Assembly (NCBI GenBank): GCA_030656575.1
Contig: JAUSPO010000030.1
Span: 63,298-127,297 of the forward strand
DNA length: 64,000 nt
Origin: Bacillota bacterium
GTDB taxonomy: Bacteria > Bacillota > Dethiobacteria > DTU022 > UBA8154
Direction: 5' to 3'
Shown: positions 5,543 through 25,480 of the stretch, one piece after another
Layout of the letters: every line of letters begins with the position of its first letter
Position numbering within the stretch: the first letter of the stretch is position 1
Notes under the pieces: model-generated
The model's database searches: none
Seen by the model: only the letters and a program-made list of their open reading frames with translations
Told to the model about the DNA's origin: nothing
Translations under genes and position numbers: made by a program

Positions 5543-5605
5543 ATTTCTACATTAAATGGAATTTTCCTTTTTAGAGTGATGAACTTTTTGTAGCTTTCTA
5601 TAACC

Positions 5606-5650
5606 CCTGTAACATATCAGATCATGATTGTATATATTATAGTGGGCTTG
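5606..5650 (+). promoter_or_regulatory. candidate promoter shared with the paralogous gene at 7220 (TGTAACA-N17-TATATATTATAGTG)
   Basis: cccctgtaacatatcagatcatgattgtatatattatagtg, about 30-70 nt upstream of the ATG at 5677. The -10-like element resembles the mother-cell sigma (sigK/sigE) CATATA-TA consensus. Confidence 0.3.
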
Positions 5651-5676
5651 TTAATAAGAAGATACGCCCAATAATA

Positions 5677-7074
5677 ATGAAAGGAGAAAATACAATGTCA
5701 AACGATTTAATTGTGAAGCGAAGGCTACTTAAAGTTGAAAAAGTCATTGGTGAAGATACTGTTCGCAGGACTGTGGCAGCAGATGTGGTCCTGCCATTTA
5801 AAGTATTAAAAGTTTTTGATGTCATTGCCCATGTTATGGCCGTTGAAACAGCAGTTCAGGAAGGTGGAGTGCGCGTTGCCGGTGTTGTTCATAAACAGCT
5901 TTTTGTCGTCGATCGAGGAGATATAGTACGGCATGTGGAGGAGGACATTCCTTTTGAGTTCCTTGTTCCTGTTGAAGGGGTTCTGCCTGGAATGAACGTT
6001 CAGACAAATATCCGTATTCTCGAAATAGATAAAACCTTGGTTGATCCCCAAACAGTAAGACAGGTTATTGTTTTAGAGATTTTTGTTAAGGTAACTGTTA
6101 CAAAACAGATTGAAGTAGTTGTGGATGTACGCGGCAAGGATATTATCGTCAAAAAAGAGTTACTAAAGGTTGACAGCGTGGTTGGAGAAGATACTGTCAG
6201 TCAGGTTATTACACCGGTGGCGACACTACCCATAGTTGCCAGGAAAATTTTCCGAATCATACCGTCAGTACGCAATGTAACGGCAGAAGTTCGAACTGAT
6301 ACGGTAATCGTGCGGGGAGTAATTCATAAGCAGGTCTTCCTTGTCGATGAAGGCGATCTGGTACGCCATGTGTCAGAAGATATTCCTTTTACAAATACAA
6401 TAGCTATACCTGGTGCCAGGCCAGGGATGGATGTGCAATTTGATGTGAGTGTTTTCCTGGAAGAATTTAAGTTAATAGATCCTCCCAGCCGAATGCTGCG
6501 CCAGGTTTTGACAATAGAAGCTTTTGTTAAAGTAACTGAAACGCTGCAGATCGAAGTTGTCATCGATGTCAAGGGTCGGAATATAGTCGTAAAAAGAAAA
6601 CTTCTGAAAGTTGAGTCCGTCGTCGTGGATGTCCTCCAGCAGGAGACGGTGCGAGCAGTTGTAAGATTGCCTGTCCAGGCCATTAAGATATTTGATATCA
6701 TGGCCAGCATTGTCAACCTTCAGGCGGAAGCCCGTTTTGACCAGGTAGTTGTGCGGGGGATACTGCACAAGCAGCTCTTCTTCGTTGACCCCGGCGGCCT
6801 GGTACGCCACGAAAGGGAGGATATACCCTTTACCTTTGTGAAATCGGCACCGGGTGCCCGTCCGGGGATGAATGTACAGGTGCGTGCCCGTATTATTGGT
6901 GATATTCGGGCCAGGATAATTGATAACAAGGGTTTGGAAATAGAGCAGGTTGCGGTTATTGAAATCTTTGCAAAAGTTACCCGTACGGTTCAGCTGGAAG
7001 TGGTGGTTGATGTAAAAAGAGTTTTACCTCCACCGAAGCCGTCAAATGACCCACAGCCTTCACCAGAAAGCTAA
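5677..7074 (+). CDS. DUF3794 (SPOCS-type) repeat protein, three internal repeats of about 150 aa; putative spore coat/sporulation protein
   Basis: Internal repeats begin LLKVEKVIGEDTV / LLKVDSVVGEDTV / LLKVESVVVDVLQ, each with HKQ(L/V)F.VD.GD.VRHV and PGARPGM(N/D)VQ. The gene is a paralog of the next one. Confidence 0.55.
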   Translation: MKGENTMSNDLIVKRRLLKVEKVIGEDTVRRTVAADVVLPFKVLKVFDVIAHVMAVETAVQEGGVRVAGVVHKQLFVVDRGDIVRHVEEDIPFEFLVPVEGVLPGMNVQTNIRILEIDKTLVDPQTVRQVIVLEIFVKVTVTKQIEVVVDVRGKDIIVKKELLKVDSVVGEDTVSQVITPVATLPIVARKIFRIIPSVRNVTAEVRTDTVIVRGVIHKQVFLVDEGDLVRHVSEDIPFTNTIAIPGARPGMDVQFDVSVFLEEFKLIDPPSRMLRQVLTIEAFVKVTETLQIEVVIDVKGRNIVVKRKLLKVESVVVDVLQQETVRAVVRLPVQAIKIFDIMASIVNLQAEARFDQVVVRGILHKQLFFVDPGGLVRHEREDIPFTFVKSAPGARPGMNVQVRARIIGDIRARIIDNKGLEIEQVAVIEIFAKVTRTVQLEVVVDVKRVLPPPKPSNDPQPSPES

Positions 7075-7149
7075 GGAGAAAAAGGTGATTATATTCATAG
7101 CTTAATCCCTATGATTATCTGAAACCTTTTATGTTTTCTTAATACCCCT

Positions 7150-7190
7150 GTAACACTACAGGGGTATCTTGTATATATTATAGTGAACCT
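7150..7190 (+). promoter_or_regulatory. candidate promoter for the second DUF3794 gene; includes the perfect palindrome CCCCTGTAACACTACAGGGG
   Basis: acccctgtaacactacaggggtatcttgtatatattatagtg. The TGTAACA to TATATA spacing (17 nt) is the same as at 5606-5650. The palindrome could also terminate the upstream gene. Confidence 0.3.
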
Positions 7191-7219
7191 TAAAAGCATA
7201 ATTGAAAGGAGGGTAAAAA

Positions 7220-8923
7220 ATGTCTGACCTTTTAGTCAAAAGACAATTACTTAAAGTTGATCGGGTAATTGGTGAGGATACGGTTCGGGAAACAGTTGAA
7301 GCCACCATTACACTGCCTTTTTCCATCATCAAAGTATTTGATGTAATCGCCAGCGTAACCGACATTGAAACTGAAACGAAGGAAGGAGGCGTTATGGTCT
7401 CCGGGGTTATTCACAAGCAGCTTTTTGTTGTGGATAAGGGAGATGTGGTACGCCATGTTCCTGAAGACGTTCCCTTTAGCGTCTTTGTAGATATTCCGGG
7501 GACGACCAATAATATGGACGCCCATGTGGATGTGCGCATCCTTGCCCTGGACACAGAAGTGCTAGAATACGGTAAGAAAGTGCGGCAAACCATTGTTCTG
7601 GAGATATTTGTCAAAGTTACCACCATCCAACAGATCGAAGTAGTTATCGATGTTCTTGGTAAGGATATCATCGTCAAAAAAGAACTGCTTAAGGTAGATA
7701 GTGTGGTCGGAGAGGACACTGCAGTCTTTACTCTTACCCCTACCGCAACTCTGCCCATAACGGCCAAGAAAATCTTTCGCATCATCCCTTCAGTGCGTGA
7801 TGTAAGCGCAGAGGTAAAGGAGAACACCGTGATTGTGAAGGGTGTCATCCACAAGCAGATTTTCCTCGTTGATGAAGGGGATCTGGTGCGCCATGTCGCT
7901 GAGGATGTTCCCTTTACCCGGACGGTCGATATTCCCGGTGCCAGGCCTGGTATGGATGTGCAGGTGAGAGTCAGGGTAGTACTTGAAGATTTTCAGTTAG
8001 TTAATCCTCCCAGCCGTCAGCTGCGCCAGACCCTTGTTGTGGAAGCCTTTGTGAAGGTTACGGAGGTACTTCAGATCGAAGTAGTGGTTGATGTGCAGGG
8101 TAGGGGCATTGAGGTAATCAAAAAGCTTCTCAAAGTGGAAAGCGTGGTTGTAGATGTGCGTCAGAAAGAGACGCTCCGCTCGACTGTAACCCTGCCGCAG
8201 AAGCCTACCAAGATTCTCGAGATTGTGGCCGAAATTGTCAACCTGAGGGCGGAGGCCCGTACCGACCAGGTGATCGTGAAGGGTATTCTCCATAAACAGA
8301 TCTTCTTTGTGGAAGAAGCAGGAGACCTGCTGCGCCACTTCCGGGAAGATGTGCCCTTTACCTTTGTAAAGACGGCCAGAGGGGCACGTCCGGGTATGAA
8401 CGTGCAGGTCCGGGCCAGTATTGTCGGAGAGATCATAACCAGGCTTAACGGCAGAGAACTGGAACAGACCGCCGTGATCGATATCTTTGCGAAAGTCACC
8501 CGCACGGTCCAACTTGAAGTATTAGTCGATGTAAGAAGAGTAGCGCCAGTTCCGCCAGTTCCGCCAGTTCCGCCGATTCCGCCGTTCCCGCCGAAGCCGC
8601 CACCGCTGGCGAAGAAGTACATTGTGCAGAAGGGTGATACTCTCTGGAAAATCGCCAAGCGCTTTGGGGTATCACTGGATGCCCTTATCAGGGCAAATCC
8701 ACAGATCCAGAATCCCGATCTGATTTTCCCGGGTGATGTTGTCTTTATTCCCGAAGTACATGTGCCAAAGCCTCCCACAAAGAGGTATGTAGTCCAAAAG
8801 GGAGATACTCTCTTTCTCATTGCCAAGCGCTTTGGGGTATCACTGGATGCTCTTATCAGGGCCAATCCACAGATTGCGAATCCTAACCTGATTTTCCCTG
8901 GAGATATAGTATTTATTCCTTAA
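7220..8923 (+). CDS. DUF3794 repeat protein with a Pro-rich linker and two C-terminal LysM domains (SipL/SpoVID-like morphogenetic coat protein candidate)
   Basis: Four DUF3794-like repeats, then PVPPVPPVPPIPPFPPKPPP, then two LysM units (YIVQKGDTLWKIAKRFGVSLDALIRANPQI.NP.LIFPGD.VFIP). Confidence 0.6.
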   Translation: MSDLLVKRQLLKVDRVIGEDTVRETVEATITLPFSIIKVFDVIASVTDIETETKEGGVMVSGVIHKQLFVVDKGDVVRHVPEDVPFSVFVDIPGTTNNMDAHVDVRILALDTEVLEYGKKVRQTIVLEIFVKVTTIQQIEVVIDVLGKDIIVKKELLKVDSVVGEDTAVFTLTPTATLPITAKKIFRIIPSVRDVSAEVKENTVIVKGVIHKQIFLVDEGDLVRHVAEDVPFTRTVDIPGARPGMDVQVRVRVVLEDFQLVNPPSRQLRQTLVVEAFVKVTEVLQIEVVVDVQGRGIEVIKKLLKVESVVVDVRQKETLRSTVTLPQKPTKILEIVAEIVNLRAEARTDQVIVKGILHKQIFFVEEAGDLLRHFREDVPFTFVKTARGARPGMNVQVRASIVGEIITRLNGRELEQTAVIDIFAKVTRTVQLEVLVDVRRVAPVPPVPPVPPIPPFPPKPPPLAKKYIVQKGDTLWKIAKRFGVSLDALIRANPQIQNPDLIFPGDVVFIPEVHVPKPPTKRYVVQKGDTLFLIAKRFGVSLDALIRANPQIANPNLIFPGDIVFIP

Positions 8924-8992
8924 GTTGAAGGGGAAAAGATGATGAGTTGAAATCCTGAGATTGTGGGAAGCCTAAGGGTGAGCTGAATAGAA

Positions 8993-9024
8993 GGAGTCGG
9001 TTAAGTAAACCGGCTCCTTTTCCG
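8993..9024 (+). terminator. rho-independent terminator after the DUF3794/LysM gene
   Basis: ggagtcggtt-aagtaa-accggctcc followed by ttttcc. Confidence 0.5.
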
Positions 9025-9236
9025 TTTCTGTGCTTAAATTACCATTATCTGTTATATAGTAGTATTTGTTGACATTTTCCTCTAATAAAGACTATCATTT
9101 TCCTGGGAAGGTATCTTCAGGGAATAGAGGATGAAAAGAAAGGAGAAGGGTCAGCATACAGTTTGTGTATAAGCTGTAATTTGATTATAATTATAGCACA
9201 GATTACCAGATATGTAAGAAAGGAGAATTTAAGTTT

Positions 9237-9950
9237 ATGTTTAGAAGAAAACATTCTTTTATCATCTTTACCGTGGTTTTTCTTTTCCTGGTTTCCATGG
9301 TTCCTACCGCTGCAGCCTGTCAATATGGAAACTGGACCACGCAATTCAATGGTGTAAGAGTTCCTTTAAACTTTGTTTCAGGAACAGCAGATCAATCCGT
9401 TTACAGAGTTGAGGTTCCCCTTAAGGATGGACAGGCCGACAGGAAAATAGTTATTTATTACAGGATAAACTTGCGAACGGGAAATGTTACACTCATTCCA
9501 GCACCGACGCCGCCTGCACCCGTGCCGCCTGAGCCGACGCCGCCAGCACCCGGGCAATCAATATTGTCAGCAGATGAGCTGCAGATGTTTAATCTGGTAA
9601 ATGAAGAAAGAAAGCAAAGGGGACTAAATGAGTTAATAATTCATGAAAACCTTGTGAAAGTAGCCCGACTGAAGAGCAAGGATATGATTGACCGGGGTTA
9701 TTTTGCCCATCAATCTCCCACATATGGTTCACCCTTTGATATGATCAAAAATGCAGGAATTGCATTTACCTATGCCGGTGAAAACCTTGCCGGTGCATCT
9801 ACTGTTGCCCGTGCCCATACGTCCCTCATGAACAGTCCCGGACACCGCGCCAACATTTTAAATGTAAATTATACCCATGTGGGAATAGGTATAGTGAATG
9901 GCGGTCCCTACGGTAAGATGTTTACGCAAATGTTTATCAGGCCAAGATAA
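9237..9950 (+). CDS. secreted CAP/SCP (PR-1-like) domain protein, YkwD-like
   Basis: Signal peptide, a PAPTPPAPVPPEPTPPAPG linker, and CAP motifs (YFAHQSP, NSPGHRANILN, THVGIGIV). Confidence 0.7.
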   Translation: MFRRKHSFIIFTVVFLFLVSMVPTAAACQYGNWTTQFNGVRVPLNFVSGTADQSVYRVEVPLKDGQADRKIVIYYRINLRTGNVTLIPAPTPPAPVPPEPTPPAPGQSILSADELQMFNLVNEERKQRGLNELIIHENLVKVARLKSKDMIDRGYFAHQSPTYGSPFDMIKNAGIAFTYAGENLAGASTVARAHTSLMNSPGHRANILNVNYTHVGIGIVNGGPYGKMFTQMFIRPR

Positions 9951-10042: not shown

Positions 10043-11963
10043 GTGCGCCACGCATGGCGATTAACTTGGTGGTGAAAGTCCACTATGGGGGTCTGTAGTT
10101 ACCAACCATTAGCCAAGAGCAAGGGTGTCCATCGTGAGGTGGAATCTGAAGGAAGCTGGAGGCAAAATTCCGACCCAAGGAACACGAACATCATCAGGCA
10201 TAAGGTATGGGATGAGTTTGCTGGACAAAACGAAATCCAATAACTACACGGACATACCACTGTAAATGATGTGGGTACATGGAATGAAAGTGAATCGTCT
10301 TACCGTGGGAGGTCTCATGGACGTGAGGAGATGGAATTCGAATCACGGTTGAAACAAGATTTATCATGAGAAGTCAGCAGATACCATAGTACTCGATGAA
10401 GTCTACGTCGTCGAGGAAGGGTTGAACCTCAGGGGGTGAAAGTAAATGAATGTTACCGAGACAGAAGGAAAGTACAGCCAACCTCAGAGGGCTTCCGAAG
10501 GAAGCAGCAACGAGGGCTTACCGCAAAAGGATAGTGCGGAACACGAAAGATATGCGGGAGCGTACAATTCTGGGAGGATAACGGAAAACAACCTCACCGA
10601 TGCAAACAAGCCGAAGGAAAGATTACTTGAGGAAATATTGGACAATCAGAATATGAACAACGCATTCAAACGTGTCAAGTCCAATAAAGGAGCTCACGGA
10701 GTCGATGGGATGGGAGTAGATGAACTTCTACAATATCTCAAAGAAAACGGAGACCAACTCAGGCAATCAATTCTGGATGGGAAATACCATCCTAACCCCG
10801 TCAGAAGGGTAGAGATACCCAAAGAAAACGGGAAGAAAAGAAAATTGGGAATACCTACGGTAGTGGACCGAGTAATACAGCAGGCAATAGCCCAAGTGCT
10901 TACTCCCATCTTCGAGAAGCAGTTTTCAGACAACAGCTACGGGTTTCGACCCGGGCGGAGTGCTCACGATGCAATCAGGAAATGTCAGGACAACATAGAC
11001 GAAGGATACAAATATGTTGTTGACATGGACTTGGAAAAGTACTTCGACACAGTTAACCAAAGTAAGCTGGCAGAAGTATTATCCAGGACGATAAAAGATG
11101 GGCGCGTAATATCGCTCATCCATAAATATCTGAGAGCAGGAGTAATAGTCAAGCACAGTTTCGAAGAAACGGAAATCGGCGTACCACAGGGTGGACCACT
11201 CAGTCCAATTCTTAGCAACATCATGCTTAACGAACTGGACAAGGAACTCGAAAGAAGGGAACACAGGTTTGTCCGCTTCGCAGATGATATAGTCGTCTTC
11301 TGCAAAAGCAGTAGAAGTGCGAAACGCACACTTGAAAACATACTACCCTTCATCGAGAAGAAGCTATTCCTTAAAGTGAACAGAGAGAAAACGGTGGTTG
11401 ACTACGTAGGAAAAGTGAAATTTCTTGGGCTCTCGTTCTATCGATACAGAGGTAAAACGAGGGTCAGAATTCATCCCAAATCAATTGCAAAGATGAGAAA
11501 TAAAGTAAGAGAGCTTACTTCCAGAAGCAATGGAATGGGCAACACAGCCAGAGCTGAAAAGCTCAGACGCTATATTATGGGGTGGATTAACTACTTCAAG
11601 ATAGCGGACATGAAGAAGCTGATGACCATTACGGACGAATGGATGAGAAGGCGTATCCGCATGATTTACTGGAAGCAATGGAAACGAGTGAAGACAAGAG
11701 TTAAAATGCTAAGGTCACTCGGCATCCATGAACAGAAAGCATGGGAATATGCAAACACAAGAAAGGGCTACTGGAGAATCTCCAATAGCCCAATCATGTC
11801 CACATCCCTTGGAAACAATATCATCAAAGGATTTGGATACCTATTCTTTTCTGAGTACTATCGGCGAGTTACAGCGTAAACTGAGGAACCGCCGTGTACC
11901 GAACGGTACGCACGGTGGTGTGGGAGGTCGGCTACTCAAATAATGGGTAGCCTCCTACCCGAT
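10043..11963 (+). mobile_element. group II intron, 1921 nt, hairpin-targeting with an endonuclease-less RT (bacterial class C-like behaviour)
   Basis: 5' end is GTGCG and the 3' end is ...CCCGAT. A domain V-like hairpin (ccgtgtaccgaacggtacgcacgg) lies at about 11890-11915. The intron encodes the RT at 10446-11879. Removing 10043-11963 recreates the junction ccccttacca|tagatagtgggaag seen in the empty copy at 55.6 kb. Confidence 0.8.
10446..11879 (+). CDS. group II intron reverse transcriptase/maturase (no HNH endonuclease domain)
   Basis: RT blocks FRPGRSAHDA, VVDMDLEKYFDTV, GVPQGGPLSPILSNI and the YADD box FADDIVVF, followed by a maturase X domain. The C-terminus lacks Cys/His En motifs. 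Confidence 0.9.
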   Translation: MNVTETEGKYSQPQRASEGSSNEGLPQKDSAEHERYAGAYNSGRITENNLTDANKPKERLLEEILDNQNMNNAFKRVKSNKGAHGVDGMGVDELLQYLKENGDQLRQSILDGKYHPNPVRRVEIPKENGKKRKLGIPTVVDRVIQQAIAQVLTPIFEKQFSDNSYGFRPGRSAHDAIRKCQDNIDEGYKYVVDMDLEKYFDTVNQSKLAEVLSRTIKDGRVISLIHKYLRAGVIVKHSFEETEIGVPQGGPLSPILSNIMLNELDKELERREHRFVRFADDIVVFCKSSRSAKRTLENILPFIEKKLFLKVNREKTVVDYVGKVKFLGLSFYRYRGKTRVRIHPKSIAKMRNKVRELTSRSNGMGNTARAEKLRRYIMGWINYFKIADMKKLMTITDEWMRRRIRMIYWKQWKRVKTRVKMLRSLGIHEQKAWEYANTRKGYWRISNSPIMSTSLGNNIIKGFGYLFFSEYYRRVTA

Positions 11964-12754: not shown

Positions 12755-14215
<1,461 letters not shown>

Positions 14216-14437
14216 TATGCAAATGGGGTGGGAACAAAAGCGTTTGCGACCCGTAGGGTCATGGTGGTTAGCAGGTAAATGGTATGCTGCGAGCCGACAG
14301 ACCTGCGTCATCACAACAGTAAACAGCACCGCCTTCGAGGCGGTTCTTTTTTCAGCGGAGGCAATTATCCCTTCTGCGGCATAACATAAAGAAAACCTTA
14401 AGATGTAAGAAGTTCTTATGGGAGTTGGTGATAGGTT

Positions 14438-14656
14438 TTGGCTGGAAGGGATCAGAAAAACTGTTTATGCTGTGGTTCGGTAAAAGGCTCCGGGATCACC
14501 GTATTGTCTTCTTTTATTTGCCTTGATTGTGAACAGGAGATCATTAGTGCTTCATTTCATGACAGGAAATACGGGCGTTTTATTGAAATTCTCAAAGAAA
14601 TATGGAGTGGGTTAATAATAGAAGATATTCCTGAGACTGACGATGCAGCGAAGTAG
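14438..14656 (+). CDS. csfB: anti-sigma-G factor Gin (CsfB) family zinc-binding protein
   Basis: 72 aa with CxxCG...CxxCE (CLCCGSVKGSGITVLSSFICLDCEQ). It sits directly upstream of the yaaO-tmk-holB cluster, as in Bacillus. Confidence 0.55.
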   Translation: MAGRDQKNCLCCGSVKGSGITVLSSFICLDCEQEIISASFHDRKYGRFIEILKEIWSGLIIEDIPETDDAAK

Positions 14657-14673
14657 CGATACGTAATGCGGAG

Positions 14674-16158
14674 GTGTTTAAGATACGCAGAAATCTTACC
14701 CAGAGGAAGACGCCACTGTATTCTGCAGTAAGAAATTACCTCAAAAAGGATCAATTGTCCTTTCATGTTCCCCTGCATGGCAGGGGTGACGGCGCCCCTG
14801 TTCTTATGCGTAGAGGTTTTCAGCCGCTCATGCAGTGGGATTTGACTGAGCTGGCTCCTCTTGACGATCTGCATCTTTCCCATCATGCCATCAAGGATGC
14901 CCAGCAGCTTGCTGCGAGGCTTTTTAATGCTGAAGAAACCTTTTTTCTGGTTAACGGTGTGACTGGTGGAATTCTTGCTCTGTTTTTGGCTTTTTGCAGC
15001 CCTGGGGATAAGGTTTTACTCACACGCATATCACATAAATCTGCTTTACATGGAATAGCTTTATCCGGGGCACTTCCTGTTTACCTTCCCGTGGAAAAAG
15101 ATCCGCCCACCGGGTTACCCCTGAATGTATCCGCAAAGATGGTAGAAGAAGCTCTCCAGGAACATCCGGATACGAAACTAATACTTATTACATCACCTTC
15201 TTATTGGGGAATTACTGCTGATCTGCATGCTATCAGGAAAATCGCCATCCGGTATGACGCAATGCTTGCCGTAGACGAAGCGCACGGCACGCATTTTCCA
15301 TTTTACAGGGAAAGCCTGCCACATAGTTCCGCTGCAGGCGTGGATATATGGTTGCAAAGTGCACATAAATCTCTCGGCGCCCTTACACCGGGAGCATTCT
15401 TACATCTGGGCCATAAAAGATTTGCTCCCCCGGTAAAATTTTGGCTGCAGGCTTTGCAGACAAGCAGTCCATCATATCCTGTCATGATTTCCCTCGACCT
15501 GATCAGGATGCAGGCCGCGCTGATGGGGAAAAAGCTTTTTTCTAAATCTTGGAACTGGTCTCTGCGTTTGCGCAGTGGTTTGGAGAAAAAGGGATTTAGA
15601 CTGCTCTCTCCGGAAATATCAGACAGCAGAGATTTTAAATTGGATCCCTGCCGTATTACTTTTTTTTGTCCCCGGGGAGAAGGACGCCTCCTGGCGCGAA
15701 AGTTGGCGAAGCATCGTATCGAGGTGGAAATGTGTGACGACAGTTATCTGCTGGCCGTTGTGGGTCCTTCACAGCTTGCTCTGTCATCAGATTTTGTTGT
15801 CAGGGCTATTACGAATGCAAGGAGCGAAATAACGAGTTTATCTGCGCCGGTTTTTTCAGAGTATTCTTCATTTTTTTTTCTTAGACGAACTGCCGCCTTC
15901 GTAATGTCACCCCAAAAAGCCCTTCGATCTCCATGCATCTCTGTGGCCCTGGAAGAGTCTGTGGGGAAAACAAGTGCAGAAATGGTTGTGCTGTCACCTC
16001 CCGGTATTCCCATTTTGTCCCCCGGAGAAGAGATTACTGAGGAAGCAGTTTCCTATCTTCTACTTAAAAGGACTCAAAAAATGCTTTTTCAGGGTGCTTC
16101 TAATCCTACCCTTCTAACAATTAAAGTTGTTGCAGGAGATATTAATATGGTAGAATAA
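14674..16158 (+). CDS. Orn/Lys/Arg decarboxylase family PLP enzyme (YaaO-like)
   Basis: N-terminus TPLYSAVRNYLKKDQLSFHVPLHGRG and SAHKSLGALT (PLP lysine), in conserved synteny before tmk. GTG start. Confidence 0.8.
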   Translation: MFKIRRNLTQRKTPLYSAVRNYLKKDQLSFHVPLHGRGDGAPVLMRRGFQPLMQWDLTELAPLDDLHLSHHAIKDAQQLAARLFNAEETFFLVNGVTGGILALFLAFCSPGDKVLLTRISHKSALHGIALSGALPVYLPVEKDPPTGLPLNVSAKMVEEALQEHPDTKLILITSPSYWGITADLHAIRKIAIRYDAMLAVDEAHGTHFPFYRESLPHSSAAGVDIWLQSAHKSLGALTPGAFLHLGHKRFAPPVKFWLQALQTSSPSYPVMISLDLIRMQAALMGKKLFSKSWNWSLRLRSGLEKKGFRLLSPEISDSRDFKLDPCRITFFCPRGEGRLLARKLAKHRIEVEMCDDSYLLAVVGPSQLALSSDFVVRAITNARSEITSLSAPVFSEYSSFFFLRRTAAFVMSPQKALRSPCISVALEESVGKTSAEMVVLSPPGIPILSPGEEITEEAVSYLLLKRTQKMLFQGASNPTLLTIKVVAGDINMVE

Positions 16159-16205
16159 ATAAGATGAAATGAAGCCTTCATAGTCAGCGGGTTGGATGGT
16201 GAGTT

Positions 16206-16883
16206 ATGGCAGAGAAAAACGCAAATAACAAAAAAGGTTTATTTATAAGTATAGAAGGCCCGGATGGTGCCGGGAAAACTACTCAGGCGAGGTTGTTAAA
16301 ATCGCGCCTTGAAAATTTTGGATTGGAAGTGATTTTGACCAGAGAACCTGGGGGAACCCCTATTGGAGAAGAGGTCAGGAATCTGCTTTTAAATCCGGAC
16401 TTTTTTGAAATGACAGTTCCATGTGAGGTATTATTGTATACTGCTGCCAGAGCTCAGCTTGTAAGCGAATTTATCCGGCCTTCATTGCAAAAAGGAATAA
16501 TTGTTATAAGTGACCGTTATATGGATTCTAACCTGGTTTACCAGGGTCTCGCCGGCGGTGAGAACCCGGATGTAATTAAAACGATTAACATGTGGGCTAC
16601 AGACAGCCTCATTCCGGATATTACTTTTTTACTGGATTTGGAAGCCGAAACGGGGCTGGAACGTTTGCAAAAAAATGAGAATGGGGCAAAATGGCAGGGT
16701 GACAGAATAGAGCAGCGGAATCTGGAATTTCATCAAAAGGTACGACAGGGTTTTTTGCAGTTAGCATCCGGGGAAGCCGCTCGTTTTATGGTTATCAATG
16801 CCGGGGACGGACCCCATATTGTTCATAAAAAGATTTGGGAGAAGACGCAGTTACTCCTGCAAAACGAAAATCTCTTATCTTAA
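16206..16883 (+). CDS. tmk: thymidylate kinase
   Basis: FISIEGPDGAGKTTQ P-loop and DRY motif. Confidence 0.9.
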   Translation: MAEKNANNKKGLFISIEGPDGAGKTTQARLLKSRLENFGLEVILTREPGGTPIGEEVRNLLLNPDFFEMTVPCEVLLYTAARAQLVSEFIRPSLQKGIIVISDRYMDSNLVYQGLAGGENPDVIKTINMWATDSLIPDITFLLDLEAETGLERLQKNENGAKWQGDRIEQRNLEFHQKVRQGFLQLASGEAARFMVINAGDGPHIVHKKIWEKTQLLLQNENLLS

Positions 16884-16915
16884 GATTCCTATCTCATAAG
16901 AGGTGAGCATGCAAA

Positions 16916-17929
16916 TTGGGTTTTGAGGAAATAGTCGGCCAGGATTTAGCCATAAAGGCCTTACGCCGTTCTCTCCTAAGGGGGGAGATAGCTAATGCGT
17001 ATTTATTTTCAGGAGCTCCCGGAAGCGGCAAAAAAAGCATTACAAATCTTTTTGCCCAGGCCCTGAATTGTGGCAGCGAGGATCCTCCTTGCAGGAATTG
17101 TCTTGTTTGTCGAAAAACCATAAGTCACAATCACCCTGATGTTTACCACATTAAACCGCAGGGCACATCCATTAAAATCGGGCAGCTGCGCGAAGTTAAA
17201 GAGAGCCTTTATTATCTTCCTGAAGAAAGTGGCAAAAAAATTTGTATTATTCACGATGCGGATCTTTTAACACTACCTGCATCTAACAGTATTTTGCAGA
17301 TTCTGGAAGAGCCGCCCGGGGATCTGGTTTTTATGCTGCTAAGTTCCAGGCCCTGGGCTTTACTGCCAACCATTATTTCCAGATGCGTTCATTTTGCGCT
17401 TCTGCCGCTGCCGCCGGAAAAGATGAGCTTTTTATTGAAGAGTCATGGATTTCCAACCACTGAGGATAGTGAAATTGTAATTGCCCTGGCTGGCGGTAAT
17501 CCGGGTAAAGCTCTTCATATGTCTTCCGGCAGCGGGTGGGAAAAGAGCTATGAAGAAGCATTTTCATTGGTGAAAGATATTGAGGGAGGACCTGTTGAAA
17601 ATATTTTTGTCAAAGCTGAAGAATTATCCAAGAGAGATGATTTAAGAGAGCTTCTGGAGATTCTTCTGATTATTTATCGCGACAGGCTTATTTATAAGAT
17701 GAATGGTTGCCTTGATAATGTTCTCATAAAGAAGTTCCTTCAGTTAAATAATAGTAGAAAAGAACACAAATCCTGCAGCGAAGGCAAAAACTTCAATTTG
17801 CAGGAAAATACCTTTTTCCTGGAAAAAATTTGTCGTAACATATTACAGCTTGAGGGAGAACTATTTAATAACATTAATAAACGTTTAGCTATAGAAGTAT
17901 TGTTTTTGAAGATGAGAGGAGCTGTTTGA
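16916..17929 (+). CDS. holB: DNA polymerase III delta-prime subunit
   Basis: HAYLFSGAPGSGKKS, a CxxC zinc module, and position after tmk. Confidence 0.85.
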   Translation: MGFEEIVGQDLAIKALRRSLLRGEIANAYLFSGAPGSGKKSITNLFAQALNCGSEDPPCRNCLVCRKTISHNHPDVYHIKPQGTSIKIGQLREVKESLYYLPEESGKKICIIHDADLLTLPASNSILQILEEPPGDLVFMLLSSRPWALLPTIISRCVHFALLPLPPEKMSFLLKSHGFPTTEDSEIVIALAGGNPGKALHMSSGSGWEKSYEEAFSLVKDIEGGPVENIFVKAEELSKRDDLRELLEILLIIYRDRLIYKMNGCLDNVLIKKFLQLNNSRKEHKSCSEGKNFNLQENTFFLEKICRNILQLEGELFNNINKRLAIEVLFLKMRGAV

Positions 17930-18750
17930 AGATGCCAAAGGTTGTTGGAGTGCGCTTTCGTCGTGCGGGCAAAATTTATTATTTTGATCCTGGTGAGTTG
18001 GAATTGAAACAGGGTCAGGATTTAATTGTGGAAACCAGCCGAGGGCTGGAGTTTGGAGAGGTAGCACAGGAAAACAAAGAAGTCAGTGCGGATGAAATAG
18101 TGCCCCCTCTAAGGCTTGTCCGCAGGGTTGCTGCGGATGTGGATTATAAACAGCTTGATGAAAACAGGCTAAAGGAAAAAGAAGCCCTGCGCGTATGTCA
18201 TGATAAAATAGAAAAGCATAAGTTAGACATGAAACTGGTTGATGTGGAATTTACTTTTGATCATAATAAGATAATATTCTATTTTACATCGGACGGGCGG
18301 GTGGATTTTCGGGAATTGGTTAAGGATCTGGCGGCTGTTTTTCGGACACGTATCGAACTCAGACAAATTGGGGTTAGAGATGAGGCTAAAATGTTAGGAG
18401 GGCTTGGCCCATGCGGGAGAGGTCTGTGCTGCTCTACATTCCTTGGGGATTTTGGCCCTGTTTCCATTCGCATGGCCAAGGACCAGAATCTATCCTTGAA
18501 TCCCACGAAAATATCAGGGATTTGCGGCCGGCTTATGTGCTGCCTCCGCTATGAGGCTGAGCATTACGAGTGTGCCCGGGCAGGTTTCCCATCTATGGGA
18601 GAAGTTGTTACTACCCCACATGGTGAGGGTAAAATTATCAGCCAGAATATCATGAAAAAAACAGTTTATGTTGAGCTGTTGAATGAATCCAAGCATGAGG
18701 AATTTCCTGTGGATGAAATTGTTAGGACGCCTCCCTGTAAAGGCAGGTAA
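17926..18750 (+). CDS. ricT: PSP1-domain protein RicT/YaaT (stage 0 sporulation protein)
   Basis: VVGVRFRRAGKIYYFDPG, Cys-rich C-terminus (GPCGRGLCCSTF...CGRLMCCLRYE), and synteny after holB. Confidence 0.8.
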   Translation: MKMPKVVGVRFRRAGKIYYFDPGELELKQGQDLIVETSRGLEFGEVAQENKEVSADEIVPPLRLVRRVAADVDYKQLDENRLKEKEALRVCHDKIEKHKLDMKLVDVEFTFDHNKIIFYFTSDGRVDFRELVKDLAAVFRTRIELRQIGVRDEAKMLGGLGPCGRGLCCSTFLGDFGPVSIRMAKDQNLSLNPTKISGICGRLMCCLRYEAEHYECARAGFPSMGEVVTTPHGEGKIISQNIMKKTVYVELLNESKHEEFPVDEIVRTPPCKGR

Positions 18751-18752
18751 TT

Positions 18753-19622
18753 ATGGAGAAAAAAGACACTGAGCGTTATTTCGGGGAAGGAACTCTCTAC
18801 ATCTGTGGAACACCAATAGGTAATCTGAAGGATATTACACTCAGATCCCTTGAATATTTAAAAAAGGCCGATTTTATTGCTGTAGAGAGTATTAATCATT
18901 CCAGGAAGCTTTTAAGCCATTATGGAATAAGGGCTCCTCTTATCTCTTTCAGGGAGTCCAATAGGGAAAAGAGGAGTAAGGAGATTCTTCACAAGCTCAG
19001 ACAGGGTGCCAGTGTAGCTTTTATTACCGATGCCGGCATGCCCACTATCTCTGATCCCGGCACCTATCTTGTGAACATGGCTATCCAGGAGCAGGTTTCT
19101 TTTACTGTTCTGCCTGGCCCTTCTGCTGTCCTCACTGCTTTAATAAAATCGGGATATTCCGGAAACAAGTTTGTTTTTTGGGGTTTTTTAAGTCGTAAGG
19201 CAGGTAATCTAAAAAAAGAAATTCAATCCATCGCTGAAGAAGAAAAAACAGGGGTTATTTATGAGGCCCCTCACCGATTGGTTAAGACCCTTAAAGAGAT
19301 GGGAAAAGCCCTAAAAGGAAGAGAAGTAGCTGTATGTCGTGAACTGACAAAGAAATTTGAGGAAGTACGCCGGGGAACTGCCGATGATCTGTTCCTTCAT
19401 TATTCTGAGCATCCTCCCAGAGGTGAGATTACAATTGTAATTTCATCGGTTGATAAAACGAGAAATGAACCGGAAGCCCTGAAAGAAGAATGTATAACTA
19501 AGCTTATGGTCGCTATACAGAAAGGAATTACTCCTAGAGAGGCAGTTAAGCAGGTCGCTGAGAGTTTATCCCTCCGCAGGAACGAAGTGTATAAAATTTA
19601 TTTAGAACTTCAAAAAAATTAA
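18753..19622 (+). CDS. rsmI: 16S rRNA (cytidine1402-2'-O)-methyltransferase
   Basis: Tetrapyrrole-methylase fold N-terminus LYICGTPIGNLKDITLR..IAVE; synteny (yabC). Confidence 0.85.
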   Translation: MEKKDTERYFGEGTLYICGTPIGNLKDITLRSLEYLKKADFIAVESINHSRKLLSHYGIRAPLISFRESNREKRSKEILHKLRQGASVAFITDAGMPTISDPGTYLVNMAIQEQVSFTVLPGPSAVLTALIKSGYSGNKFVFWGFLSRKAGNLKKEIQSIAEEEKTGVIYEAPHRLVKTLKEMGKALKGREVAVCRELTKKFEEVRRGTADDLFLHYSEHPPRGEITIVISSVDKTRNEPEALKEECITKLMVAIQKGITPREAVKQVAESLSLRRNEVYKIYLELQKN

Positions 19623-20183: not shown

Positions 20184-22247
20184 TTACTTTTTCCAGTAGA
20201 TTTGAATAAGATCATTATTGTTTAGTTTTGCCGTGAGTGAGGCAGGTTGATCATTATGGGTCATAATTAACTGTCCCTGAGGCCTGCTTCGATCGAAGTT
20301 GATATAATTAAAAATATCTACGAATTTAAGATCTTTGGTTTGTCTCAGGTTCAAAGTTTTATCATTGACTGTAACATTGACTACAGACATGTTGTTTATG
20401 GATTTCAGGCTCTTGTCAGAAAGCATCTTTTTTTGAGCCAGGTCTCCCTGCCGATCAGCTTTTTTTATTAGGCTGACAGTGATCCTGTCCTCAGGCTGCA
20501 GTTCGTATGTTAAAGGGCAGGTTCTTTCATTTACCTGAAAAATTATATCCCCGGGATCAAGTTCAGACATATTAAAAAAGTCCTGCAGAGTACCTAAATT
20601 ACCTAATTCAACCCTATCACCTTCTTGGACAATCATTTCAGAGTCGGCTTCTTCTCCGTTGATAAAAATGCGGAAAGAAACATGAGTGAGTTCACCGTTA
20701 AAGTAAATAGAGCAGCCTTGAGAAGGTAATAACTCTTTAACTTTAACAAGCGGCGAAAGCCCTTCCAGAGCTTCTATAACTTCAAGTTTATCGTTATTTT
20801 TTATAATCGTTTCCAGAGAAGCTTCTTTGCCGTTTACAAGGATACGGGCGTTTTCACCCGGAAGTCCGGGAAAAATCTTTTCTTTTCCATTGAGAATAAA
20901 TTTGAGACCTGCTCCCCGGTGTCCAAGCAGTTTTTTGGAGTTAAAGCCTGCTGTTATAAGTGCATTGCCAACCTTGAGATTCTCCGTATCCAGAAGTCGG
21001 ACTACCTTTCCATTAACAGTTAGATAGGAAAATCCGAAATATTCTTTTTGTAAGGCTGAAACAGCAATGCCGAATGGTGTAATGAATTCGGGACCGTTTA
21101 ATTTCTTGCCCGTATAGATCACCTGGCTAATGAACTCCCTGCCTCGTATGGCTACCATTTCAGGGGATAATTGGAGTTGTTCAGCCAATTTTTTTCGTAA
21201 AAAAGGTGTATAACTGCCCCCTCCGATGCAGAATACCGCCCGGGTTGGGCCCTTGTTGTATTCTTTAATTACTGAGGCAATTTCGGAAGCTATTTTTTCC
21301 ACCGCTGGTTCGATTACTTTTAAAATTTCTTCTTCCCTTATAGTATGGCTGTTCCCTATAATATCCTTAAAGGATATATTTCCTTTCTTCTGAGAAAGCA
21401 TCAGCTTAACATTTTCCGCAGTATTAAAGTCCAATAGAAAAGTCTCTGCGATCTGTTCGGTTACTTCATCCCCTGCCAGAGGAACCATGGCGTATCCCAC
21501 TACAGAACCTTTATGAGTGATAGCTATATCTGAGGTTCCTGCTCCTACATCTACAAGAGCAAGATTTAAGGAACGGTACTCCAGTGGAATGGTGACGTTC
21601 AGGGCGGCAATGGGTTCCAGGGTCAGGTTGCTGACACTCAGCCCCAACTCTTCCACAACAGTTAAGAGGCTGTCAACGACTACCTGTGGAAGAAAAGTGG
21701 CCAGCACCTCTATCCCCATTTTCCTTCCTTTCTGGCCAATTAAACTTGAAATAGGGTAGTCATCAAGGTAGTAGGCTGCAGTAGTAAAACCGACGCAGTA
21801 ATAAGCGTCTGCCGAATCAATTTCATCCTCAATGACCAAGATCTCCTGCGCTTTTTCAACGGCTTCCAGTTCTAATGAAGAAATCTCTTCTTTTTTGGTT
21901 TTCCTGCCCGGCTCAATTTCCCTTTCTGCAAGAGAACGGCAGGTTTTCAGAGCCCTTCCCGCTGCAGCAATAGCAACACTCTTCAAAGAAACACCTAATT
22001 TCTTTTCAAGAGCTTCTTTTACGTTCCTGGCAGTATTCACAACCCCTTCAATATTATGGATCTGCCCGTCAAACATATCTCTCCGGGGATGGTAGGCAAT
22101 CTCCGATTCCAATACTTTTATTTTGTTGTTTTCCGGATAACAAACAAGACCCACAATACTCCGGGTACCTATATCCATAGCAAAGATTAAACGGTTGGGA
22201 TCAAGCACAATGCTTCTTTTCGACAATTTAAGACACCTCGCACTCAA
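20184..22247 (-). CDS. FtsA/PilM-like actin-fold ATPase with a roughly 250-aa C-terminal extension of unknown function
   Basis: DIGTRSIVGLV (phosphate 1), ALVDVGAGTSDIAIT (phosphate 2) and CIGGGS (adenosine motif). The C-terminal third has no recognised domain. Confidence 0.45.
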   Translation of the reverse strand: MSARCLKLSKRSIVLDPNRLIFAMDIGTRSIVGLVCYPENNKIKVLESEIAYHPRRDMFDGQIHNIEGVVNTARNVKEALEKKLGVSLKSVAIAAAGRALKTCRSLAEREIEPGRKTKKEEISSLELEAVEKAQEILVIEDEIDSADAYYCVGFTTAAYYLDDYPISSLIGQKGRKMGIEVLATFLPQVVVDSLLTVVEELGLSVSNLTLEPIAALNVTIPLEYRSLNLALVDVGAGTSDIAITHKGSVVGYAMVPLAGDEVTEQIAETFLLDFNTAENVKLMLSQKKGNISFKDIIGNSHTIREEEILKVIEPAVEKIASEIASVIKEYNKGPTRAVFCIGGGSYTPFLRKKLAEQLQLSPEMVAIRGREFISQVIYTGKKLNGPEFITPFGIAVSALQKEYFGFSYLTVNGKVVRLLDTENLKVGNALITAGFNSKKLLGHRGAGLKFILNGKEKIFPGLPGENARILVNGKEASLETIIKNNDKLEVIEALEGLSPLVKVKELLPSQGCSIYFNGELTHVSFRIFINGEEADSEMIVQEGDRVELGNLGTLQDFFNMSELDPGDIIFQVNERTCPLTYELQPEDRITVSLIKKADRQGDLAQKKMLSDKSLKSINNMSVVNVTVNDKTLNLRQTKDLKFVDIFNYINFDRSRPQGQLIMTHNDQPASLTAKLNNNDLIQIYWKK

Positions 22248-22718
22248 ATGTTATGCAAAAAGAAAGAAATTTTTTCCTTATTAAATATATTTATTTCAAT
22301 CTTTTCTTTCAATTTCCTGCAAAAAAAATAATTTGTTTGTGACAAGTGGGAAGAGGAAACCAATGAGTAGTAAAATGGGACAGGGGGACAGTTTTATCTT
22401 ACCCCCGTCAAGTAGACATTAATAAAAAAGAGGCTAGGCAATCTTGATTCTGTATTCTATAGGGCTGAGGTTGTCTAATTTTTGCTGAGAGCGAGACCAC
22501 AAAAAGGCAAGTTATTTCCACCCTGGGACAATTGACCTGTCCCTCCGTCCCACCTCCGTCCCAAAGCTTAACGGGATCCCACGTTATGGTATATTTGCCT
22601 TAAATATTTGTTTATGGTATATTTAAGTTTGGTATGGCAATCGTGTAGTATCTCCAGTTATCTTCTTGAAACCAGTGCAATGGTATTACCTAAAATAAAG
22701 GAGGGGCCCTCCGGAGTT

Positions 22719-24692
22719 ATGTCGAAGAAAACGTTTTATATCACTACACCCATTTACTATCCAAGCGATAAGCTTCATGTGGGGCATTCTTATACGACTG
22801 TCGCCGCCGATGCCATCGCGAGATTTAAAAGGCTTACCGGTTATGATGTATGGTTCCTGACCGGCACCGACGAGCATGGGCAGAAAATACAGCGCAGCGC
22901 GGAGGGCGCAGGGAAAGATCCTCAGCTTTTTGTTGATGAGATCGTTGCGTGGATCAAGGAACTATGGTCCGCTCTTGATATCTCCTATAGTGATTTTATC
23001 AGGACTACAGATTCCCGTCACAAAAAAACGGTCCAGTACATTTTTAAGAGGCTTTTTGAACAGGGGGATATTTACAAGGGGCAATACGAGGGTTGGTACT
23101 GTACGCCCTGTGAATCTTTCTGGGCTGCCAGGCAGGTAGAAGAAGGGAACTGCCCAGACTGCGGCAGGCCTGTGGAGTTGGTGAAAGAAGAGGGTTATTT
23201 TTTTCGCATGGGAAAATATTCCGGGCGTCTCCTGGATTACATAAATTCAAACCCCGAATTTATTCAGCCTCCTTCACGCAAAAACGAAATGATCAATAAT
23301 TTTCTGCAGCCAGGGCTTGAGGATCTTTGCGTTTCCCGCAACACTTTTGATTGGGGTGTTCCTGTCCCATTTGCACCGGGAAATGTAATCTACGTCTGGC
23401 TTGACGCTCTGAGTAATTATATTACCGCTCTTGGTTATTCCACAGATGATGAGACTCTCTTTAATAAGTATTGGCCTGCCGATGTTCATCTTATGGCTAA
23501 GGAAATTGTCCGTTTTCATACCATTTACTGGCCTATTTTTCTAATGGCACTGGACCTTCCCCTGCCTAAACAGATTTTTGGCCATGGCTGGCTGATCATG
23601 AAGGAAGGTAAAATGTCCAAATCAAGGGGTAATGTTGTTGATCCCATGGTTCTTCTTCAGCGCTATGGATCGGACAGCCTGCGTTATTATCTCTTAAGGG
23701 AGATTTCCTTTGGGGCTGACGGGGTTTTTACCAATGAGTCTATGCTGCAGCGGATAAATTCGGATCTGGCTAATGACTTGGGTAATCTTCTGAGCCGTAC
23801 GCTAACAATGGTGGAGCGTTTTTTCTCTGGAGTTATTCCGGCTCCGGCAGGGGATGAGCTTCAAAGTGATAAGGAACTCCGTGAATTGGCTCTATCCACA
23901 CCTTCGCATATAACTGAGCTAATGGACAAACTTCAGCTGAACAGCGCCCTGGAAGTCCTCTGGACACTGGTGAGGCGTTCTAACAAATATATTGACGAAA
24001 ACACACCCTGGCTGTTGGCCAAAAGGGAAGAGGATAAAGAGAGACTGGGTACAGTTCTCTACAATTTATGCGAATCCATACGTTTTATAAGTGTTCTTCT
24101 TTTGCCTTATATGCCGCGCACTCCGATGCGTATCTGGTCCCAGCTGGGGATAGAAGACCTTTCCCGGTTACACGGGTGGGAAAGCCTGGAGAAGTGGGGT
24201 TCTATGCCGACCGGTGTCAAAGCGCAGCGTACTGATGACCTTTTCCCCAGACTGGACATTGAGATGGAGATGGAGTCTTTGTTAGAGGGGAAAGGAAGCG
24301 AACTGAAAAAAAAGATAAAGATTAAGGAGCAGAGCCCTGTGGAAGAAAAAACAGAAGTCAAAACAGAGCTGATCTCCATAGACGAATTTGCCAGGGTAGA
24401 GATCAGGGTTGGGGAGATTCTCACTGCAGAACCGGTTCCTAAAACCGATAAACTTCTTAAACTCCTTGTAAACCTGGGAGAAGAGCAAAGACAGGTAGTG
24501 GCAGGTATGGCTCCATATTATTCCCCTGAAGAAATTACCGGGAAAAAAGTTTTGTTTGTTTCAAATTTAAAGCCGGTAAAAATTCGCGGACTGCTGTCAG
24601 AAGGGATGGTTCTTGCAGCAACAAGTCCCGATGGCAGGGTATTGCTTACAGCTGTTGATGGTGATATTCCACCGGGAAGTAAAATTTCATGA
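22719..24692 (+). CDS. metG: methionyl-tRNA synthetase
   Basis: HVGHSYTT (HIGH) and KMSKS, a Cys4 knuckle (CTPCESF...CPDCGRP), and a C-terminal EMAP/tRNA-binding domain. The start is reassigned to the ATG at 22719 behind RBS AAGGAGG; the track ORF begins upstream at 22608. Confidence 0.95.
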   Translation: MSKKTFYITTPIYYPSDKLHVGHSYTTVAADAIARFKRLTGYDVWFLTGTDEHGQKIQRSAEGAGKDPQLFVDEIVAWIKELWSALDISYSDFIRTTDSRHKKTVQYIFKRLFEQGDIYKGQYEGWYCTPCESFWAARQVEEGNCPDCGRPVELVKEEGYFFRMGKYSGRLLDYINSNPEFIQPPSRKNEMINNFLQPGLEDLCVSRNTFDWGVPVPFAPGNVIYVWLDALSNYITALGYSTDDETLFNKYWPADVHLMAKEIVRFHTIYWPIFLMALDLPLPKQIFGHGWLIMKEGKMSKSRGNVVDPMVLLQRYGSDSLRYYLLREISFGADGVFTNESMLQRINSDLANDLGNLLSRTLTMVERFFSGVIPAPAGDELQSDKELRELALSTPSHITELMDKLQLNSALEVLWTLVRRSNKYIDENTPWLLAKREEDKERLGTVLYNLCESIRFISVLLLPYMPRTPMRIWSQLGIEDLSRLHGWESLEKWGSMPTGVKAQRTDDLFPRLDIEMEMESLLEGKGSELKKKIKIKEQSPVEEKTEVKTELISIDEFARVEIRVGEILTAEPVPKTDKLLKLLVNLGEEQRQVVAGMAPYYSPEEITGKKVLFVSNLKPVKIRGLLSEGMVLAATSPDGRVLLTAVDGDIPPGSKIS

Positions 24693-25480
24693 CAGAAATT
24701 AACACATTCCCTTATCTGGTTGATAGCCATGCCCATCTTGATTTTCGTGATTTTGACAGGGACAGGGATGAAGTTATAGAAAGAGCAGAAAAGATGGGGC
24801 TAAAGCTGATCATAAATATCGGCTTTGATCTGGAATCTTCGCAAAAATCTCTTGCTCTTGCTCATAAATATCCCCCGGTTTATGCCGCAGTGGGAATACA
24901 CCCCCATGATGCCGCCAAAGCTCCTGCCGATTATTTGCGCAGGCTGGAAGAGATGTCGCAGCACCCCAAGGTTGTAGCCATAGGAGAGATGGGCCTGGAT
25001 TTTTACCGGGATCGCTCTCCCCGCAATCTTCAAAAGGATGTTTTCCGCCGGCAATTAAAACTGGCGCAAAAAGTTAACCTTCCTGTTGTAATTCATGACC
25101 GCGATGCTCACGAGGAAGTAATGGCAATTCTAGAGAAAGAGGGTTTGCCTGATCCTGGTGGAGTGATGCACTGTTTTTCTGGCGATCTTGCCCTGGCCCG
25201 GAAAGCATTAAAAATGGGTTTTTATATCTCTATTGCCGGTCCCGTAACATACCCGAAGAACAATAAGTTAAGTCAGGTTGCAGCAGCAATCCCTGAAGAC
25301 AGGCTCTTAATAGAAACAGATGCTCCTTTTTTAACACCCAACCCTTTCCGGGGAAAACGGAACGAACCATCTTATGTAGCATATACTGCAGAAAAGGTAG
25401 CAGCTCTAAGAGGCATTACAGGTGATATAATTGGGAGCCTTTGTCTGGAGAATGCCAAGCGATTATTTTCCATAGAATAA
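24689..25480 (+). CDS. tatD: TatD-family metal-dependent DNase
   Basis: VDSHAHLDF and HCFSG motifs; synteny (yabD). Confidence 0.9.
   Translation: MTEINTFPYLVDSHAHLDFRDFDRDRDEVIERAEKMGLKLIINIGFDLESSQKSLALAHKYPPVYAAVGIHPHDAAKAPADYLRRLEEMSQHPKVVAIGEMGLDFYRDRSPRNLQKDVFRRQLKLAQKVNLPVVIHDRDAHEEVMAILEKEGLPDPGGVMHCFSGDLALARKALKMGFYISIAGPVTYPKNNKLSQVAAAIPEDRLLIETDAPFLTPNPFRGKRNEPSYVAYTAEKVAALRGITGDIIGSLCLENAKRLFSIE

Follow-up and report, generated by a model that had tools for sequence, protein, structure and literature searches.

Adaptors of the SipL/SpoVID type connect the SpoIVA basement layer to the remaining spore coat, a step whose workings outside of Bacillus and Clostridioides difficile are, to our knowledge, largely unknown. 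Here we describe a locus that bears on this step: two tandem genes, each encoding a protein built from SPOCS (SpoVID-CotE-SipL; DUF3794) repeats, within a 64,000-nucleotide stretch of a Bacillota bacterium genome (GenBank assembly GCA_030656575.1, contig JAUSPO010000030.1, forward-strand positions 63,298 to 127,297), the whole of which is referred to below as the window. Named homologues of the proteins come from Dethiobacter, Ca. Contubernalis and Ca. Syntrophonatronum, all Dethiobacteria, a group in which cultured members form endospores (PMC5609068, PMC10608574).

Among the closest characterised systems is SipL of C. difficile, which carries three DUF3794 domains together with a LysM domain at its C terminus, the latter binding SpoIVA and needing an aromatic residue at W475, with a W475F variant being functional (PMC6436350). 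The discussion of the same paper, citing earlier work, has the LysM domain of SafA binding SpoVID and then the cortex (PMC6436350). SPOCS proteins have been predicted to form tripod scaffolds from modules of two three-stranded sheets, with SipL a single-chain, pseudo-threefold version and the cysteine-poor members proposed to be morphogenetic (bioRxiv 10.64898/2026.09.03.749163), and they have been reported as members of a Bacillota network specific to sporulation (PMC11513918). Set against these systems, the locus most plausibly, though with no more than moderate confidence, represents a duplicated pair of cytoplasmic, cysteine-free SPOCS scaffolds, in which an anchored adaptor would be accompanied by an unanchored, co-assembling paralogue.

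SPOCS proteins with and without LysM modules

The two genes and the modules of the second are as follows:

5695..7074, + strand: gene 1, 459 amino acids, three SPOCS/DUF3794 repeats and a short proline-rich tail
7220..8923, + strand: gene 2, a SipL-type protein of 567 amino acids with three SPOCS repeats, a proline-rich linker and two LysM modules
about 7220-8542, + strand: the three SPOCS repeats of gene 2 (Pfam PF12673)
8543-8608, + strand: proline-rich linker of gene 2, with a 9-bp tandem repeat at 8544-8602
about 8618-8752, + strand: LysM1 of gene 2 (Pfam LysM)
about 8786-8920, + strand: LysM2 of gene 2 (Pfam LysM)

Both proteins match PF12673 in three stretches each, above the Pfam cut-off of 23.6 bits (104.3 bits for gene 1 and 112.8 for gene 2), and of the two paralogues gene 2 alone contains LysM modules (two, 116 bits). 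A first-pass annotation, made from the letters of the sequence, had assigned both proteins to DUF3794 and placed two LysM modules and a proline-rich linker in the second only, and Pfam agrees on each count. It had also counted three to four repeats of about 150 residues; the repeats are real, and the 47% identity of an out-of-register alignment between the paralogues sets them at exactly three per protein, each of about 146 residues. In register, the two proteins are 68% identical over 443 residues. The open reading frame (ORF) of gene 1 opens at 5677, and a ribosome-binding site, AAAGGAG, lies at 5680-5686; this position and the public annotation place the start at the ATG at 5695, from which the 459-residue product is 100% identical to a public gene model (P0001). 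The 465-residue ORF read from 5677 found no match on lookup, because that gene model begins at 5695. Neither protein contains a cysteine and, by direct reading, neither has a signal peptide or a transmembrane segment. Gene 1 ends in an 18-residue proline-rich stub.

In the order of its domains, three DUF3794/SPOCS followed by a C-terminal LysM in a cytoplasmic, cysteine-poor protein, gene 2 matches the published architecture of SipL (CD3567; PMC6436350), as the first-pass annotation had suggested, and the family PF12673 that both genes match is itself named after SipL. The LysM modules are also compatible with SipL at the aromatic helix-1 position following GDTL, as placed by LysM consensus, where LysM1 has W, LysM2 has F and every orthologue has F, Y or W. 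Gene 2 departs from SipL in having two LysM modules (one to three in relatives) of the SafA subtype behind a long proline-rich linker, in the sigma-K-type AC of its promoter -35 where C. difficile sipL is sigma-E-dependent, and in the company of a tandem paralogue which, for want of a LysM domain, falls outside the SipL architecture.

The LysM modules also invite comparison with Bacillus subtilis. They exceed the cut-off of the NCBIfam SafA/ExsA LysM model (TIGR02899, 140.1 bits vs 67.85, in two stretches), and in a sequence search of the PDB their best match was Ecp6 (4b8v), followed by the LysM domain of B. subtilis SafA (7r1l). In SafA, however, the LysM is N-terminal and SPOCS domains are absent, and several orthologues are publicly annotated as 'SafA/ExsA family spore coat assembly protein', a misleading name, given that the likeness to SafA does not go beyond the LysM module. 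Against the SpoVID model (TIGR02907) gene 2 reached 43.4 bits vs a cut-off of 169.85, with the LysM modules alone aligned, and the CotE family was absent from the Pfam and NCBIfam matches of both proteins at E <= 0.01. The pairing of a LysM-anchored SPOCS protein (SpoVID) with an anchor-less organiser of the outer layer (CotE) nevertheless resembles that of gene 2 with gene 1, although SpoVID and CotE have a single SPOCS each, with CotE trimerising, whereas genes 1 and 2 carry three per chain and are recent paralogues at 68% identity; any relation of either gene to CotE would be at the level of the fold only. Gene 1 similarly recalls CsxA and CsxC of Clostridium sporogenes, structural proteins of the exosporium/parasporal lattice in the spore envelope that have a SPOCS fold and no anchor. 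Their subunits, however, contain a single SPOCS each, are rich in cysteine, and form trimers and crystals via disulfides, in contrast to the cysteine-free, three-SPOCS chain of gene 1. An AlphaFold2 model of gene 1, built from a 32-sequence alignment (predicted local distance difference test score 91.9, predicted template-modelling score 0.66), is all-beta with six strands per repeat (3 x 6), a prediction that agrees with the published SPOCS module of two three-stranded sheets and with the account of SipL as a pseudo-trimer in one chain.

Both genes are under purifying selection, the ratio of non-synonymous to synonymous substitution (dN/dS) being 0.06-0.18 for gene 1 against its orthologues and 0.05-0.18 across both paralogues. 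When the SPOCS regions of LysM-less and LysM-bearing copies were aligned, no diagnostic residue was found at >= 80% in both groups, leaving the linker-LysM tail as the sole consistent difference between the paralogues. A clearly neofunctionalised gene 1 was rejected for the same reason, and a co-assembling partner fits this pattern better than does a diverged new function. Concerted evolution of the tandem copies was likewise rejected, as identity within a genome (0.61-0.72) does not exceed the cross-genome mean (0.65).

Two observations concern the C-terminal ends of these proteins. LysM1 and LysM2 of gene 2 are 87% identical at the DNA level (modules within 8603-8923), and relatives (L002, L011, L017, L031, L035 in our locus survey) carry one to three modules, frequently 100% identical to each other in a given protein, which suggests repeated amplification or homogenisation of the LysM module. 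LysM-less orthologues of gene 1 end in low-complexity tails that differ by lineage, being proline-rich or made of strongly acidic runs, DH/RD dipeptide repeats or PEHPQH repeats (L008, L009, L010, L017, L016, L020, L019, L022). This diversity may point to surface or metal-binding properties particular to each lineage.

A shared candidate promoter element and an intervening hairpin

Upstream of the two genes lie three further features:

5603..5644, + strand: candidate promoter element of gene 1, with -35 GTAACA at 5609-5614, a 16-nt spacer, -10 TATATATT at 5631-5638 and then a conserved ATAGTG
7144..7185, + strand: candidate promoter element of gene 2, with -35 GTAACA at 7150-7155, a 16-nt spacer and -10 TATATATT at 7172-7179
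7142..7167, + strand: hairpin ATACCCCTGTA-ACAC-TACAGGGGTAT, 11-bp arms, between the genes and overlapping the gene 2 -35

The element reads ACCCCTGTAACA-N13-TTGTATATATTATAGTG before both genes, with identical blocks and identical spacing (ACCCCTGTAACA at 5603-5614 and 7144-7155; TTGTATATATTATAGTG at 5628-5644 and 7169-7185). A shared TGTAACA element had been proposed from the first reading and is borne out in its blocks, with the gap between TGTAACA and TATATATTATAGTG corrected from 17 to 16 nt. Across the 64-kb window the 17-mer TTGTATATATTATAGTG occurs at these two sites only, even when two mismatches are allowed (0 expected), and the strict family motif gives two matches vs 0.07 expected. 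Generic sigma-K and loose patterns occur at chance level in the window, so that the strict family motif alone is informative, while the sigma-E regular expression [GT][AC]ATA-N15-17-CATA[CT]AnT has no match there. Neither the promoter nor the palindrome was found again within the window, so no local regulon can be defined.

Conservation of the element was assessed from an alignment of upstream sequence, 130 nt for each SPOCS gene. Of 50 orthologous genes, about 45 are preceded by a core, GTMACA-N16-(C/T/G)ATATATT, which has -35 variants such as GGCACA, TTCACA and similar, and a spacer of about 16 nt; distant lineages carry a CATA -10 (GCACACA-N15-GCATATATTTAG, GTCACA-N15-CATATTATGG). The promoters of the window correspond to AC-N17-TATAtatTA, their first -10 base being T where the published consensus has C (PMC3789822). 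As sigma-E and sigma-K share a -10 and differ at the -35, where the former has ATA and the latter AC (Saujet et al., PMC3789822), we infer a conserved mother-cell-type promoter with the sigma-K/sigma-E -10 and a -35 resembling the sigma-K type. The comparison with both sigma factors that the first-pass annotation had called for therefore yields the -10 common to the two mother-cell factors, together with the AC of sigma-K and not the ATA of sigma-E. Conservation reaches past the -10 boxes: at 24-38 nt downstream of them, lineages ranging from Dethiobacteria to the distant L037-L048 retain one of ATAGTGAG, TAGACTGAG or TAGAGTGAG, and the start codon lies about 31-45 nt from the -10, a fairly uniform spacing; this stretch could be a transcription start region or a leader element.

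One must consider whether the pair is specific to sporulation at all. The same upstream elements score 9/12 as a sigma-70-type promoter (GTAACA-18-TATATT), LysM is a general peptidoglycan-binding module and the gene neighbourhood is one of housekeeping functions, from which one might read both genes as encoding vegetative proteins associated with the envelope or peptidoglycan and expressed from a sigma-A promoter. Conservation of the promoter, however, falls on ACA at the -35 and (C)ATA at the -10, and not on the TTG or TATAAT that sigma-A reads; without a signal peptide or transmembrane segment, the LysM modules would not reach the vegetative cell wall; these modules are of the spore-specific SafA/ExsA subtype, beside a neighbour of the spore_YkwD family; and SPOCS proteins are, as reported, part of the sporulation-specific network cited above. 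A vegetative role consequently seems very improbable.

The hairpin between the genes corresponds to a palindrome first described as having an 8-bp stem in which the second promoter copy is embedded. The palindrome is real and perfect, but its arms are of 11 bp, and rather than merely embedding the promoter it behaves as a hairpin with compensatory changes. It folds as RNA at -17.4 kcal/mol (z -3.5) and was flagged as terminator-like by a simple scan (11 pairs, 5 T in 8). Perfect arms of 9-14 bp, with the core CCCCTGTA / TACAGGGG, are present before gene 2 in eight distinct orthologous loci. Across 13 related sequences, pair 9-30 is AU in seven and GC in six with none unpaired, pair 8-31 is AU, UA, GC or GU in 10 of 13, and the covariation score of 0.243 is greater than those of all 500 shuffles and of all slid controls, which is suggestive of base-pairing. 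Just upstream of the gene 2 -35, three lineages without the palindrome (L011, L016, L020) have an unrelated GC-rich stem with GTTT after it; the stem in L011, the only one of these that was scanned and folded, was also flagged as terminator-like and folds at -29.7 kcal/mol. Judged from this pattern, the hairpin is most likely a terminator of gene 1 that overlaps the -35 of gene 2.

An operator for a dimeric transcription factor, such as a mother-cell regulator, is the alternative to a terminator. It would accommodate the overlap with the gene 2 -35, the nearly invariant inner arm (CCCCTGTA/TACAGGGG) and, above all, the copies with one or two mismatches that occur where the upstream neighbour is divergent and no terminator is needed (gene 1 of L006, L007 and L009; the single-copy L026 and L031). 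It stays in contention because termination leaves these divergent-junction copies unaccounted for. Covariation of the outer stem pairs, on the other hand, is what base-pairing and not base-specific protein contact predicts; the perfect palindrome is restricted to sites just after a co-oriented gene 1, with mismatches elsewhere; an unrelated stem takes its place in L011, L016 and L020; and no second copy exists in the window. The consensus sites of SpoIIID and GerE did not fit the palindrome when compared by eye. On this balance an operator appears unlikely, and we retain the terminator.

Conservation of the pair and its possible roles

The extent of the arrangement was surveyed in one genome per species, with the ORFs of 76 loci parsed. 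About 17 metagenome-assembled genomes (MAGs) of Dethiobacteria type retain the tandem pair, in the order GT2 glycosyltransferase (-), in some an alpha-beta hydrolase (-), SPOCS3, SPOCS3-LysM and CAP, so that conservation of the tandem in relatives, along with that of its promoter, was upheld. The closely related D. alkaliphilus group, including a MAG, and several others have SPOCS3-LysM and CAP only at this locus, and the pairing of SPOCS3-LysM with YkwD reaches much more distant Bacillota (L037-L049). In a neighbour-joining tree of weak bootstrap support the LysM-less copies form one clade, sister to the LysM copies, with one duplication suggested in the core clade and a separate one in the Contubernalis-like group. 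Contigs with this locus, plainly one of Bacillota sporulation, also occur (L007, L010, L014, L025, L031, L056, L068) in MAGs deposited as Desulfovibrio/Desulfovibrionaceae, a Thermoplasmata archaeon or Bacteroidota, and probably represent binning contamination.

More broadly, a HMMER search of 1.84 billion cluster representatives returned 476 relatives, and among the best 150 of these a LysM hidden Markov model found no LysM in 83 of 128 full-length proteins (~65%). Most sampled relatives thus lack LysM, and the LysM-less copy is not unusual in the family. The first-pass annotation had singled out this paralogue as uncharacterised; no member of its clade is indeed known to have been characterised, but it is less exceptional than was supposed, and the locus amounts to a tandem expansion, specific to this lineage, of the known SipL/SPOCS family. 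A different SPOCS tandem, of about 750-950 followed by about 430-600 residues with both genes lacking LysM, is found in distant Bacillota (L050-L053, L060, L067, L072-L074, L077), from which it follows that tandem SPOCS duplication has happened repeatedly.

How might such a pair operate? By analogy, gene 2, with the architecture of SipL, would act as a coat-morphogenetic adaptor: its LysM modules would tether it to SpoIVA and/or to cortex peptidoglycan on the forespore surface, as in SipL and SafA, and its SPOCS body would serve other coat proteins as a platform. Gene 1 would join the assembly through SPOCS-SPOCS contacts, as an unanchored subunit or a second layer, in a role relative to gene 2 much like that of CotE relative to SpoVID. 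Each gene would form its own transcription unit from its own copy of the conserved mother-cell-type promoter, with a -10 of (C/T)ATAnnnT, and the hairpin presumed to end gene 1 transcripts overlaps the -35 of gene 2.

A more specific version of co-assembly can be proposed, tentatively and with a low expectation of its being correct, in which one Dethiobacteria clade has evolved a two-component adaptor. The paralogues would build a mixed SPOCS lattice, a hairpin serving both as gene 1 terminator and as part of the -35 of gene 2 would set their ratio, and promoters of the sigma-K and not the sigma-E type would bring SipL-like function to a later point of the mother-cell programme than that in C. 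difficile.

The LysM-less copy could instead be a regulatory decoy or antagonist, competing with gene 2 for coat clients or for the contacts of self-assembly, which would limit or time coat deposition. It has the same SPOCS body and no LysM, its own transcription unit beyond an intervening hairpin would permit independent dosage, and its C-terminal tails are highly variable and of low complexity across lineages. A shared promoter type, by contrast, implies co-expression and not antagonistic timing; the whole SPOCS body of gene 1 is under purifying selection, as is that of gene 2; multi-SPOCS proteins without LysM make up most of the family (within the best 150 of 476), often with no LysM partner nearby; and those anchor-less SPOCS proteins that have been characterised (CotE, CsxA, CsxC) have structural or morphogenetic roles and are not inhibitors. 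As the paralogues share a promoter type and show no paralog-specific residues, co-assembly is favoured, and a decoy is in our view improbable.

Several points nevertheless weigh against an anchored adaptor with a co-assembling paralogue under mother-cell control. Firstly, its functional claims rest on analogy throughout: it is by analogy that we infer expression during sporulation, the acting sigma factor, the binding partners and co-assembly itself. A search of solved structures with the gene 1 model, moreover, returned none that was similar. Secondly, bootstrap values in the neighbour-joining tree are low, at 23-68%, and 23-39% for the split between LysM-less and LysM copies, which makes its account of the number and timing of the duplications tentative. 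Thirdly, the promoter assignment is imperfect, given that the first base of the -10 is T or G in this clade and C in the consensus, that the gene 2 -35 of the syntenic locus L003 is a sigma-E-like GTAATA (the sole ATA among the orthologues), and that the elements reach the sigma-A score already given; since sipL of C. difficile is sigma-E-dependent (PMC3789822), timing here may also differ from that in the model organism. Finally, the tail of the hairpin is only moderately T-rich, and not T-rich in L003, and a role in termination alone would leave its imperfect copies at divergent junctions without explanation.

Neighbouring genes and wider meaning

Downstream of the pair the following features were recognised:

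8989..9021, + strand: terminator-like hairpin after gene 2, 14-pair stem with a T-rich tail (CCGTTTCTGT)
9237..9950, + strand: gene 3, a YkwD-family protein that is secreted and carries a CAP domain
10128-10298 and 10340-10422, + strand: group II intron parts matching Rfam D1-D4 models
10446-11879, + strand: reverse transcriptase/maturase ORF of the group II intron

The stem at 8989-9021 folds at -22.4 kcal/mol, and its 3' arm ends in TTTT. Gene 3 matches TIGR02909 (spore_YkwD, 176.9 bits vs 171) and Pfam CAP (63 bits), in keeping with the CAP/YkwD-type secreted protein first noted at this position, and its N-terminus (…VPTAAAC) resembles a signal or lipoprotein signal peptide. A YkwD-family gene adjoins the SPOCS-LysM genes in most loci, the distant L037-L049 included. 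A near-consensus sigma-A-like promoter (TTGACA-18-TATCAT, 9069-9098, + strand, 11/12) precedes gene 3 and may give it an expression of its own, separate from that of the SPOCS genes, in spite of this conserved adjacency.

Between gene 3 and guaB lies the group II intron (10128-11879, + strand), which looks like a recent insertion because the CAP gene directly precedes guaB in the syntenic L003. Further on, guaB, an Orn/Lys decarboxylase gene (yaaO-like), tmk, holB, a PSP1/yaaT-like gene and rsmI (12761-19622), and then metS, tatD and yabE-like genes (22608-27840), make up an origin-proximal housekeeping block conserved in Bacillota; L003 has an extra Gin/CsfB gene between guaB and yaaO. A 687-residue ORF on the reverse strand (20184-22247) combines a region of FtsA/MreB/PilM-like actin-fold ATPase with a ThiS-like segment, an unusual combination. 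The rest of the window contains housekeeping genes only, with none of the sigma-E or sigma-K marker genes that could serve for calibration.

As a lineage-specific expansion, the locus is less unusual than was first thought and reveals no new kind of system. Its useful details are the promoter core with its sigma-K-type -35, the covarying overlap of a probable terminator and the -35, and the variable number of LysM copies. What it offers is a natural comparison, in which the same SPOCS scaffold has been maintained with and without a LysM anchor, side by side, over long evolution. Its promoter motif is in addition a well-conserved mother-cell candidate for the poorly studied Dethiobacteria of soda lakes and the subsurface, and could serve in predicting their late sporulation regulon.

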